A DNA stretch of 29,077 nt from a virus. Lineage: Duplodnaviria; Caudoviricetes. A model generated the notes under the pieces. The model made no database searches, had not been told where the DNA came from, and saw only the letters and a program-made list of their open reading frames with translations. Positions 4,861 through 27,385 of this stretch are shown one piece after another. Within the stretch, counting starts at the first letter, position 1, and each line of letters starts with the position of its first letter. Position numbers and translations under genes: made by a program. Location: positions 1 through 29,077 of the IMG/VR virus record IMGVR_UViG_3300010244_000002. One strand, written 5' to 3'.

Positions 4861-5964
4861 TTATACCATACTTTGAAGGCTTTCCTCTGCCTCATCAACA
4901 TTACTTTCTTCTTCAATCCAGTTGTTTATAGATACTGGTTTTTCAGATTCATCATTGTCATACGTATCTTCGAAGTCCTTTTGGTCTGCAAAGTTTTCAA
5001 ATATATTCTTTAATGTCATGAACAAGTAGTTGTTTACATTCTTAACTTTCCCTTTCTTCTCTCCAATGATTACTCGGTTAAACCCTTTGTATAGCTCACT
5101 ATGTAACCCTTCGTTTTCAATAGTTAAATAAGTTTTTCCTCGTTCTTTTTCAACAGATCTATGAGAATGGATGAGTTTATCTGTAAATAACTCAAACTGA
5201 CTAAAGTCACTAAAGCTATATGTTTTCATTAGTGTGATGATTTGTTCACCAAACAAATCGTTTAACGCATAACTTTCAGTGTACATGTCTATTAACTCAT
5301 CTTCGGTATCTTGGGTTTGGTTGTTTTGGAAAGACTGTTTCAATTGATTATTTTGAAGCTCGTACTCTGATTCTTTATTTTCTTTAAAATCTTTAGGTAT
5401 TGTTAAGTTCTTATTACTAGGGTAAACATTTTTAATATCAGTAGACAAATTAGTTAACTCTGTCAATGATTCATGGTCTTCGTAGGGGTTATTTTCGTCA
5501 AAGGTATTAACATGTTTAACAGGTTCTTCATTTGATTCTTCTACATTTTCAGAAATATAATGAGACTGTTCTTCTGTCATTAATTCATCTTCGTATGTAA
5601 TGATATATTTTTCTTCTTCCTCATCTATTGCTTCAGGGACTTGTAAATAAAGTTTATTTGCTCTACCTGTTCTTACTTCTTTTAAAAGACCCACTCTAGA
5701 TAAATTCTTTTTAATTTTTATAACTGTAGGCTTAGAAACGTTAAGTATCTCTGCTAAGGAATTATTAGAATAAATGAAGTAAATATCTCCATTTTCGTCA
5801 AACCATTCATTTTTAATACTTACACTTAAACGGTCATTCAAAACAACATAAGCTTGGCGGTCATTTGCTGTTAATGTATTTTTATATTTTTCTCCTTTAA
5901 GTAATAACTTAGGGAATTGATAGAACTCTTGCTCTGCTTTGTTTTTAATGTTTTTATTTTTCAA
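4861..5964 (-). CDS. repA: RepA_N-family plasmid-type replication initiator protein
   Basis: The N-terminus FYQFPKLLL..KYK..L...AYVVLNDRLSVSIKNEWFDENGDIYFIYSNNSLAEILNVSKPTVIKIKKNL...GLLKEVRTG..NKLYL is the RepA_N winged-helix signature. It is followed by an acidic linker and a C-terminal KVKNVNNYLFMTLKN motif. TTG start with AGAGG RBS. Confidence 0.9.
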   Translation of the reverse strand: MKNKNIKNKAEQEFYQFPKLLLKGEKYKNTLTANDRQAYVVLNDRLSVSIKNEWFDENGDIYFIYSNNSLAEILNVSKPTVIKIKKNLSRVGLLKEVRTGRANKLYLQVPEAIDEEEEKYIITYEDELMTEEQSHYISENVEESNEEPVKHVNTFDENNPYEDHESLTELTNLSTDIKNVYPSNKNLTIPKDFKENKESEYELQNNQLKQSFQNNQTQDTEDELIDMYTESYALNDLFGEQIITLMKTYSFSDFSQFELFTDKLIHSHRSVEKERGKTYLTIENEGLHSELYKGFNRVIIGEKKGKVKNVNNYLFMTLKNIFENFADQKDFEDTYDNDESEKPVSINNWIEEESNVDEAEESLQSMV

Positions 5965-17645: not shown

Positions 17646-18029
17646 CTATTCGTATATTTTTACTTCGTTCTCTTCGTCTATTTTGTTGTCGTTAGGTAGG
17701 GTAATTACTTTTTCTATTGGGTTATCGTTAAAGAAGAAACTTTTTTTACTTTGGTTTACCTCAGTGTAGTCATAAACTTGGAGTTCTTTTTCTCGGTTTA
17801 TAACAAGAACATCTCCACTATCTAAAACATCAATAACTCGTTTTTGATCCTCGTCTAAAATAGAGAACAATTGGACTTTGTTTCCTCCTAGTTCACTATA
17901 ATAACTAATGATTTCTACCCAGTTATTTTGAAAGCCTGTCATTTTAGCTATATGTTTAGCTTGGCTCCATTCTGTATCTTCTGAAAACATTACACCCTCC
18001 AATCCACTCATATTACTATTGTACCACAA
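17646..18029 (-). CDS. Conserved hypothetical protein upstream of the portal
   Basis: 127-aa ORF abutting the portal RBS and preceded by a late-type motif. Confidence 0.7.
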   Translation of the reverse strand: MWYNSNMSGLEGVMFSEDTEWSQAKHIAKMTGFQNNWVEIISYYSELGGNKVQLFSILDEDQKRVIDVLDSGDVLVINREKELQVYDYTEVNQSKKSFFFNDNPIEKVITLPNDNKIDEENEVKIYE

Positions 18030-18094: not shown

Positions 18095-18127
18095 AAAAAA
18101 AAATACACCCTCAATAAGAAGGTGTAT
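18095..18127 (-). terminator. Intrinsic terminator of the putative ncRNA
   Basis: ATACACCTTC/GAGGGTGTAT 10-bp stem (one G-U) followed by a long T-tract. Confidence 0.88.
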
Positions 18128-18372
18128 CTGTGTAGGTCGGACTTTATTCAGTCTTGGAAGGAAGGGATGAACTACACACCGAATAAATTCGGTGGTTTCT
18201 AGGAACGGTATTGCGTAAGGCACTTATCCGTCCTTTACAGGTGGGTAACCTACCAGTACGTCTTACGTACCTATTTACTAAGGCTCGTCCCGAGCCAATT
18301 GTTTTGTAGGATTAACCCACTAATAGAGAGAGAATTTAATGATTGATTAAAAATAAGCATTTCCGACCTGTT
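18095..18372 (-). ncRNA. Putative structured non-coding RNA (about 280 nt), family not recognised
   Basis: No ORF of 60 aa or more in the interval. The closing helix AGGUCGGA/UCCGACCU encloses at least six further helices. An extended -10 lies upstream and a terminator downstream. Confidence 0.72.
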
Positions 18373-18378
18373 AATTAT

Positions 18379-18389
18379 ATTATACCACA
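18379..18389 (-). promoter_or_regulatory. Extended -10 promoter (TGTGGTATAAT) for the putative ncRNA
   Basis: Perfect TGnTATAAT about 10 nt upstream of the first paired base; no good -35. Confidence 0.62.
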
Positions 18390-18426: not shown

Positions 18427-19251
18427 TTAGATAATTTCTACTTTAAGTCCACTTTGTCTCCCGAACTGCAACCCTTCTTCAGGGCTATTAACTAGGATAT
18501 CAATAGTATTCCCTTGTATCATCCCTCCTACATCTCTAGCTGTAGCTACAAAAGAGTTTCCATTTGGTAATGTTACTCGGACAACAGAACCTGTAGGAAT
18601 AACACTTGGGTCTGTGGCAATAATTCGGTTACCATCAGGTCCATAGATAGAGTTAGAAATATCTGTTCCATCAGCAGTTACTGTTCCTGGTACTGCCCAA
18701 GATCCAACTGCATAAGCTGTTGCTTCAAAATTACCTAGAGACTGAGAAGGTTCCACTTGTTCAGTATCTTTGGTAGGTTGTGGTTTCTGTACAGGTTGTT
18801 CAGTTGATTCTTTTTTTGTATTAACACCTTTAACTTCGTTCTTAGGTTCTTCCTTTTTAGGTGTTTGTACTGGTTCAGATTTTTCTTCCTGAACTTCATA
18901 ACTTTTTACTTCTTTTGTTTGTTCATTTTCCACAGAAACTGCTTCTGCATTTCCATTATCTACTGTAGTAATTTTATTTCCAGGAATAATGAGATTGACA
19001 TCGTCTATATTATATCTATCTGCAATCGTACTAACTTGTATACCTATAGCTTCTGAAATATTATGTAAGGTATCTCCATATGTAATTGTGTATGATTTAT
19101 TTCCGTTTTCATCGACTTGAATATCTTGTTTGATTTCTTCTTCTGAACGTTCAGTCCAAGTACTTGCTTCTGCCTCTACGTTACCTGTTCCAATTGCTGT
19201 TGATAATAATACTGCTCCTGCAAGTCCTAAAAATTTATTTCTTAATTTCAC
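18427..19251 (-). CDS. Secreted LysM + 3D-domain cell-wall protein (YocH-like)
   Basis: Signal peptide (MKLRNK-hydrophobic-AEA), LysM (YTITYGDTL..I...IDDVNLIIPGNKI) and 3D domain (FEATAY..TADG..IATDPSVIPTGS..ARDVGGMIQGNTIDIL). Confidence 0.9.
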   Translation of the reverse strand: MKLRNKFLGLAGAVLLSTAIGTGNVEAEASTWTERSEEEIKQDIQVDENGNKSYTITYGDTLHNISEAIGIQVSTIADRYNIDDVNLIIPGNKITTVDNGNAEAVSVENEQTKEVKSYEVQEEKSEPVQTPKKEEPKNEVKGVNTKKESTEQPVQKPQPTKDTEQVEPSQSLGNFEATAYAVGSWAVPGTVTADGTDISNSIYGPDGNRIIATDPSVIPTGSVVRVTLPNGNSFVATARDVGGMIQGNTIDILVNSPEEGLQFGRQSGLKVEII

Positions 19252-26101: not shown

Positions 26102-27385
26102 CAATAATACCCTCGGTTTCCCGATATTTATTAGGGGTTTAGACTAGATATTGATTGAGATATTTGGCTCTCAATCCCTCACGTTACTTCTTAATTTTAC
26201 TCAAAATTATATCTTCTATCTCTTCCTTTTTCTGCTTGTAATTTACTCGTAGTAACGGTATATTGTTATCTTTACAGTATTTGTTTTTCTTTTCATCGTT
26301 CTTTTGGGTTCTAACAAATTTATCTACCCCTCCGAAATGGTTAATGGGTTCAAAATGTTGTACACCATCATACTCAATCAAGAGTAGTACGTTGTCTTTA
26401 GTGTCCATAACTGCAAAGTCAAATGGAAGTCTTTTTGTATTCTTTAAATCTGGGTATGTATATTGGGATTTATACGCTATTTTGTTCTTTTTAAGTAACT
26501 TAGCAATAAAAGTTTCCCCTTTTGACAATTTACATTCTGGACAGGCACTATATCTGAGTATATGTGCTGCTCGAACGTCCCATTCATGGTTACATCCTTT
26601 TTTATTATGTATTATAGTAACCTTTTCATTTGCACTAGTATATTCACAACCATCCTTTAGAATGTACTCATTTCCATGCTTATCATACAAATCTTGTTCA
26701 AACTGCTCTGTGGTTTTCCTACTAAATGGTTTATTATGTCTACACTTAATACAACTTCCAGAGTGGAGTATCGTTGCAGGTCTCACATAAAATTCTGTAC
26801 CACAATCCTCGTGCACTACTTTTATAGGTGTTATATTATTTACATATTTTTCTCCCTCAACAACTGTGAAATTTCCTACTTCTTTAACTTTTCTTCTAAA
26901 CGTTTCTATATCATTAGTTATAGAGTCCTTGTAACAGATAGGACATGTTCTTGTGTAGTTCAAAACCCCTGAAGGTTTTGCTTCCCACTCATGTTTACAA
27001 ACTTTATTTTTAAACCTAACCTTAGTTCTTGAGTTTATATATGGGGTAAGTATTTCGATTTCTCCGTTACTACTTTCTTTTAATTTAGCTTTATAATCTT
27101 CCTCTGTAAGCTTTTTAATATTAGTCACCTCCCTTATTTTATTTTTTTTAGTAAATTAAGTTTTCTTATCTAGTTCTCCTTAACACCATTTTGTTAAGTT
27201 CCTAGAATTTTAGTCGTTAGAGATTTCCTTGACTATATTTAGATTAACAATCTATTTGTCAAGGCTTCCTACGGGATTCCCTCTGCCCTTATACACTAGG
27301 AATTAGGGTTTCTTACCAGTATGTTGTTTTTGTGTATACTACTTTACTTTGCCCGTTTAGTGAGGTTTATAGTCAACTAAATTTA
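26102..27385 (-). mobile_element. Group I intron (IA-like) in terL
   Basis: P1 GUCGAU/GUUGAC with a U-G pair at the splice site; P3 CCUCAC/GUGAGG; P7 GACUA/UAGUC; P8 GAUUGAGA/UCUCAAUC; P9 with GAAA loop; terminal G. Splicing gives in-frame HRPWQVD-LLNSEHP (607 aa in total). Confidence 0.88.
26184..27128 (-). CDS. Intron-encoded homing endonuclease (Zn-ribbon repeats + Vsr/EDxHD-like nuclease domain)
   Basis: Three C..H.W/F...CxxC repeats, then SKGE...LPFDF...IEYDGVQH...D..KN.YC....IPLLRV. Confidence 0.85.
   Translation of the reverse strand: MTNIKKLTEEDYKAKLKESSNGEIEILTPYINSRTKVRFKNKVCKHEWEAKPSGVLNYTRTCPICYKDSITNDIETFRRKVKEVGNFTVVEGEKYVNNITPIKVVHEDCGTEFYVRPATILHSGSCIKCRHNKPFSRKTTEQFEQDLYDKHGNEYILKDGCEYTSANEKVTIIHNKKGCNHEWDVRAAHILRYSACPECKLSKGETFIAKLLKKNKIAYKSQYTYPDLKNTKRLPFDFAVMDTKDNVLLLIEYDGVQHFEPINHFGGVDKFVRTQKNDEKKNKYCKDNNIPLLRVNYKQKKEEIEDIILSKIKK

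Follow-up and report, generated by a model that had tools for sequence, protein, structure and literature searches.

A candidate stand-alone TnpB guide RNA, lacking the transposon left end, upstream of the portal operon of a Herelleviridae-type phage

In the excerpts available of the reports cited here, TnpB processes its RNA by trimming the 5' end and relies on a guide of about 12 bases (PMC10278001, PMC10097598), and it cuts the empty site, after which recombination restores the element (10.1101/2023.03.14.532601). The last of these sources also describes a TTTAT-type TnpB for which single changes in the TAM abolished cleavage, as well as PATE-like IS200/IS605 elements, which are gene-less, carry the right end and the omega-RNA, keep both ends, and are expected to use TnpB in trans (10.1101/2023.03.14.532601). 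Stand-alone OMEGA omega-RNAs consist of a complete scaffold and guide with no effector or transposase gene, have effector-bearing copies nearby with which use in trans is expected, and have been shown to work in trans in earlier work cited in the excerpted text (PMC10691335). The omega-RNA of ISDra2 has four stems, a pseudoknot between the loop of stem 1 and the 3' terminus, a UUUA loop on the last stem, and a guide that follows the right end (excerpts of PMC10097598). The locus described here shares all of these ISDra2 features, except that stem 3 is longer and bears an apical GNRA hairpin, a further hairpin on the 5' side spans the tnpB stop, and the end motif is TTCAT (with TTTAT as the family TAM). 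Like the PATEs it is gene-less and carries the right end and the omega-RNA, and like the stand-alone omega-RNAs it has a complete scaffold and a predicted guide with no effector or transposase gene, has effector-bearing copies nearby, and would be expected to be used in trans; however, no left-end hairpin of the kind kept by PATEs is recognisable, and in contrast to the stand-alone omega-RNAs the core lacks a left end, lies within a self-pairing leader and trailer, and is carried by a Herelleviridae-type phage. Stand-alone omega-RNAs being already known, this core would be another example, although its nesting is possibly unusual; the literature search returned nothing on this element or on omega-RNAs in Herelleviridae.

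The window (the whole stretch of DNA that was analysed, 29,077 nucleotides) is a fragment, 19% complete, of a Herelleviridae-type phage with minus-strand genes for the terminase, endolysins, portal, major head, and tail sheath, and its portal is ~58% identical to the portals of Listeria phages of the A511 group. A structured stretch fills the 397-bp gap between a LysM/3D gene (stop at 18427) and the portal operon, where the initial annotation had proposed one novel phage RNA of ~280 nt with a three-way junction, possibly associated with packaging. The matching gap in five related phages (A511, EFDG1, MDA2, L002, L003) measures only ~100-140 bp and holds only terminator and promoter motifs. The syntenic intergenic regions from which homologues were to be collected thus lack the element in all five, and a packaging role is without support because the position beside the portal operon is not conserved. 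Covariance model R1 likewise gave no match on five related records, among which there was no positive control. The description of a non-coding structured unit was borne out, since no open reading frame in the phage gene set covers the stretch and the minus strand from 18389 to 18095 folds at -83.2 kcal/mol (z -4.20), a stability that none of 200 dinucleotide shuffles reached; among 192 minus-strand windows of 295 nt, just 5 were more stable, all within the first gene (positions below 2600). ARAGORN reports no tRNA or tmRNA, as had been stated. SRP RNA, 6S RNA, retron, and pRNA were considered and dropped, as there was no Rfam match, no reverse transcriptase, and no syntenic conservation. Searching with the small pre-portal protein retrieved no loci, and blastn of the whole region against phages gave one chance match only. 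Elsewhere in the window, an intron-like insert that carries a 314-aa endonuclease open reading frame interrupts the terminase large subunit (26104-27383, minus strand); group I-like motifs are apparent in it by eye but missed by Rfam at gathering thresholds, and a RepA_N plasmid-type initiator gene (4861-5964, minus strand) sits in a low-GC stretch between a gene in the tail tube position and a tail assembly chaperone gene. The features of the structured stretch are as follows.

18379..18389, minus strand: extended -10 motif TGTGGTATAAT, promoter-like and matching in type the one that precedes the portal operon at 18028
18323..18372, minus strand: leader, not transposon-derived, containing the 5' arm of the closing helix (18369-18362) and ending in a pyrimidine tract
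18327-18323, minus strand: TCTAT, a possible insertion motif at the end of the leader
18312..18324, minus strand: tnpB 3'-end remnant (L-V-G-stop, 18323-18312), aligning with the ends of the parent TnpBs
18306..18320, minus strand: 5' hairpin around the tnpB stop codon, a local pairing with 96% of cells paired
18282..18296, minus strand: omega-RNA stem 1, whose loop (18290-18288) is the 5' strand of the pseudoknot; compensatory natural variants
18199..18281, minus strand: omega-RNA stems 2 and 3 (18281-18278 with 18202-18199; 18271-18255 with 18224-18207)
18247-18225, minus strand: apical hairpin of stem 3, capped by a GNRA loop
18167..18198, minus strand: IS200/IS605 right end, consisting of a hairpin (18194-18177) with a UUUA loop, then TTCAT (18171-18167)
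18151..18166, minus strand: predicted guide, the first 12-16 nt after the right end, with a C/U-rich seed, by analogy with ISDra2 (excerpts of PMC10097598)
18134..18154, minus strand: trailer, pairing with the leader and containing the 3' arm of the closing helix (18141-18134)
18095..18129, minus strand: intrinsic-terminator-like hairpin and U run (hairpin 18129-18101 listed by the terminator scan)

Judged by sequence, the core of this stretch (18322-18167, minus strand) comes from an IS200/IS605 TnpB element, of which it comprises the right end and the omega-RNA scaffold, so ~156 nt of the roughly 280 are transposon-derived and the notion of a single novel phage RNA does not hold. A weak blastn match (E 6) in Lactobacillus phage CL1 lay within a tnpA-tnpB element, 14 nt beyond its tnpB, and a later motif scan revealed many such tnpB-adjacent ends (42+8 matches, many of them chance or duplicate; 40 sources entered the model search, from which the duplicates and chance matches L007-L090 were left out). 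A covariance model built from 15 tnpB-adjacent ends, with the window excluded, matched the window over the full model length at 18314-18167 (72.2 bits, E 3.7e-15; next best match 12.3 bits). Within a Lactobacillales sample of 401 genomes, any match to the scaffold occurred in 9 genomes, and 3 genomes held four near-full matches (81-84% identity over 148-155 of 158 nt), each directly following a 377-aa TnpB with tnpA upstream (broken in one). Both of the parent TnpBs that were scanned exceed the cut-off of the NCBIfam family guided_TnpB; by eye, the parent proteins have all three RuvC acidic residues, and they end in ...NILNKALxQVG-stop at the place aligned with the remnant in the window. The left end is preceded by TTTAT in all four parent elements, and the right end is sharp, with flanks changing at 18167 both in Logan contigs and in the four parents. 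The window itself contains no tnpB or tnpA detectable by tblastn with 12 TnpBs and one TnpA (best E values 0.08 and 4.8), and the leader shows neither a recognisable left end with a hairpin next to a TAM nor a TTTAT. Rfam gave no match to the structured stretch at gathering thresholds or at E<=5, which together with homologues was to indicate a new family; yet the scaffold is of a known kind missing from Rfam, which also overlooks it beside tnpB in 3/3 control loci, and its silence is uninformative because the family is absent from the database. Other searches were negative as well: exact or near-exact core patterns had 0 matches, the L097 TnpB used as a query did not lead to the parent element, a pattern for the long helix of the initial annotation returned 84 viral stretches of which none was homologous by nhmmer, and a search for a TAM-adjacent target of the predicted guide found none.

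Every helix proposed in the initial annotation is present where it was placed, and the three-way junction is the minimum-energy fold of the single sequence, lying ~9-10 kcal/mol below the omega-RNA fold when the pseudoknot is not counted; however, it is not the conserved fold. The long helix (18306-18320 with 18241-18253) and the hairpins at 18271-18255 and 18233-18202 are not kept as a set by homologues. When the window was aligned with the four closest ends without fitting to the covariance model (five related sequences, which are few), pairs specific to the three-way junction were 75.5% paired with 3 double changes, a level of covariation not above that of shuffles (160/500), whereas pairs specific to the omega-RNA fold were 90.0% paired with 13 double changes (0/500 shuffles). 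Across the 34 distinct rows of an alignment fitted to the covariance model, the omega-RNA fold has 95.9% of 1119 cells paired and 225 double changes (0/500 shuffles). The 5' hairpin at 18306..18320 has both sides changed in 2 of its 5 pairs among five sequences, and the base of the 18233-18202 hairpin stays fully paired through wobble changes. The pseudoknot, in which TTCAT (18171-18167) supplies the 3' strand opposite the stem-1 loop, comprises 3 pairs that are 100% paired in 33 rows (middle pair AU in 18, GC in 8, GU in 7) and 93% paired in the unfitted five-sequence set. At 20 variant positions in public contigs, the phase of which was judged from equal depths only, the omega-RNA fold accommodates five co-varying pairs and is broken by 2 variants, while only the two pairs within the shared stem 1 suit the three-way fold, which 4 variants disrupt. 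These sequence comparisons support an omega-RNA with a pseudoknot, rather than a three-way junction, as the conserved fold. Because the three-way fold has the lower predicted energy for the window sequence, the free RNA may misfold until it is bound or trimmed; for another TnpB, an excerpt of PMC10278001 reports cis inhibition by upstream pairing. Base 18230 forms a private mismatch in the window where other copies pair.

The core also occurs on public contigs, at raised depth and with foreign flanks on both sides. Run X1 contains two other right flanks (beginning at 18167/18166) and two other left flanks (18322/18324), one of the other left flanks is seen again in each of X2 and X4, and runs X5-X8 contain only 18164-18324, with changing flanks and with the leader uncovered. 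By eye, each of the 5 loose ends shown at 18321-18324 is recognisable as the C-terminus of a TnpB. X1 and X2 also contain a second copy whose upstream end is not tnpB-like; it begins at base 18322, as the window copy does, but its left flank differs. In X1 and X4, window-flank sequence and a tnpB-linked copy (with one listed difference from the window core) are both present, although no contig links them, and in X2 a second core allele is about three times deeper. A cognate TnpB is therefore likely to be encoded on the same phage or in the same community.

The sequences surrounding the core (the leader and, after the core, 18166-18134) are not transposon-derived. The extended -10 and the terminator that had been claimed are both present as motifs, but the -10 has no -35 match and TGTGGTATAAT is consequently left unlisted by the promoter scan. 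The pattern TGTG[GA]TA[CT]AAT occurs three times on the minus strand of the window and never on the plus strand, and the same -10 motif is found at the orthologous portal promoter in L002/L003. The terminator-like hairpin may also serve the upstream LysM/3D gene; in relatives, a terminator directly follows that gene. Leader and trailer pair with an energy of -16.8 kcal/mol (7/2000 and 1/500 shuffles), and comparison of the leader with the four parent elements gave nothing significant (in 8 tests, at best 9/200 shuffles). Each junction lies in a pyrimidine tract (11/12 and 11/11), a pattern noticed after the fact, and such words occur 53 and 13 times in ~29,000 positions. The left junction, uncertain by 2 nt as bases 18324-18323 match the parent too, ends in TCTAT, a 5-mer that the CL1 element also has at its left end. 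When the flanks are joined in silico, the modelled empty site of 86 nt has a terminal stem and a 31-nt pyrimidine-rich loop and is only modestly stable (z -2.2, 15/500 shuffles). Because the flanks pair and both junctions are pyrimidine tracts, these observations suggest that the element landed in a small pre-existing RNA, to which the closing helix, lying outside the transposon part, may belong. This nesting is unproven because the empty allele was not found in runs, viral sequences, or relatives: a leader-to-guide joint skipping the core is absent from 8 public runs, flank blastn gave only matches with E>=0.05, the 16 guide bases had 5 matches among viral sequences (none with TTTAT/TCTAT or the window flanks), and the closing-helix pattern occurs in 0/5 related records. 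Among the loci fetched, there were 16 further scaffolds without an adjacent tnpB end; their flanks pair at <=28/500 shuffles in 3/16 and at >=92/500 in 13/16, and the closing helix was accordingly dropped as a general trait of stand-alone copies.

The explanation favoured here, with modest confidence, is that the core is likely a transcribed stand-alone guide that would employ TnpB in trans and would likely direct it to cut uninvaded copies of this site, favouring its own inheritance. A full element would have inserted at TCTAT in the loop of a small stem-loop RNA and then been cut down, shedding its left end, tnpA, and all of tnpB but the last codons. Transcription from ~18372 to the terminator would yield a ~275-nt precursor trimmed at its 5' end by TnpB, with the first 12 nt after TTCAT acting as the guide and the closing helix holding the distal part. 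A break in the empty allele of a co-infecting sister phage would then be repaired from the window allele (homing). The core is predicted not to be movable by TnpA, because the left end is absent. A point against this role is that the junction in the window reads TCTAT, as opposed to the TTTAT of 4/4 parent left ends; as single TAM changes abolished cleavage elsewhere, TnpB might fail to cut an empty allele that has TCTAT.

The main rival, which is close behind the stand-alone guide, is that the core is an inert relic: a deletion would have left the transposon end behind, and its presence within a 3' UTR or a small-RNA loop would be tolerated, possibly with transcription but without use as a guide. 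This reading, a serious possibility though a less probable one, would account for the preference for the alternative fold, the private mismatch at 18230, TCTAT rather than TTTAT at the junction, the absence of a left end, and the failure of the guide target search. However, nothing is missing from the scaffold, which is nearly identical to the tnpB-linked copy that those runs contain, and the second copy that also starts at 18322, just before the conserved 5' hairpin, fits retention of the whole unit; on the other hand, recent origin alone could explain the intactness of the scaffold. A domesticated cassette, with which the phage would aim TnpB at host or competitor DNA, is improbable. It gains from its own promoter-like motif and terminator, but the module is missing from the five related phages. 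Equally improbable is the version in which the promoter-driven omega-RNA of a lytic phage, with its closing helix leaving the 12-nt seed free, would aim TnpB at host gene starts as a takeover weapon. Read in reverse complement, TTTAT followed by the C/U-rich seed gives a Shine-Dalgarno sequence and spacer, so many host gene starts would be partial targets. With 1 mismatch allowed, TTTAT and the 10 guide bases next to it have 4 sites in 3/5 genomes, compared with 0 for a reversed control; by eye, 3/4 of these sites immediately precede an ATG on the opposite strand. Nevertheless, agreement at these sites extends to only 10-12 of 16 guide bases and nowhere to the full 12-nt seed, and as ribosome-binding sites are common, such matches are expected.

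Two other readings concern an RNA of the phage itself. Pyrimidine-rich loops are a feature of animal Y RNAs, and in the modelled empty site such a loop sits on a terminal stem, so the flanks could represent a Y-RNA-like RNA interrupted by the element. In the excerpts available, bacterial and phage Y RNAs also have a terminal 5'-3' stem (PMC4201824, PMC12135203), and a predicted Ro60-like protein is reported in a related Listeria phage (PMC12282133). Compared with the bacterial Y RNAs, however, the GNCGAAN0-1G motif near the 5' end (as given in PMC4201824) and a tRNA-like domain are absent, as is a Ro60 gene within 4 kb (no family match among 30 window proteins), and the closing helix is missing in 5 related records. 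This reading is still less probable than a domesticated cassette. A single new multi-junction phage RNA (sponge, anti-defence, or packaging) would agree with the stable fold, the closing helix, and the lack of an Rfam match; it is by now barely credible, being already refuted for the core, which is a transposon end, and facing further the non-conservation of the three-way junction, the separate travel of flanks and core, and the failure of Rfam to recognise the scaffold even beside tnpB.

Identification of the omega-RNA scaffold removes a wrongly proposed new phage RNA family and illustrates that TnpB omega-RNAs absent from Rfam can pass as novel structured RNAs. The family can be tested directly, since its fold is clear and backed by covariation, its left-end motif is TTTAT, and its 377-aa TnpBs look intact. 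Should the nesting hold, the locus would represent a guide without a left end that lives as a parasite of a small phage RNA gene and relies on homing alone to spread; an 86-nt phage RNA not yet described would then be implied.

Other stand-alone scaffolds were observed among the loci collected. The Limosilactobacillus mucosae plasmid pLM1 (L091) carries three tnpB-less scaffolds within 5 kb (139-254, 2312-2437, and 2484-2602), two of which follow a single promoter-like motif in tandem and resemble a minimal guide array. Three large phage contigs of 118-140 kb (loci L111, L113, L117, L118, L135, L128, L130, and L121) each contain full tnpB copies and, next to them, several gene-less elements that combine a promoter-like motif with a scaffold; in some of these elements a left end follows TTTAT. 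At L117 (2522 and below, minus strand), the flank after a stand-alone scaffold resembles by eye the zinc-finger region of another tnpB, and its guide may point at a rival element. At L130 (2709-2780), a stand-alone scaffold runs straight into tRNA-like sequence, which would be its guide. A 151-kb viral contig (L093, 2200-2750) has a helicase-like open reading frame in which an intein-like insert is apparent by eye.
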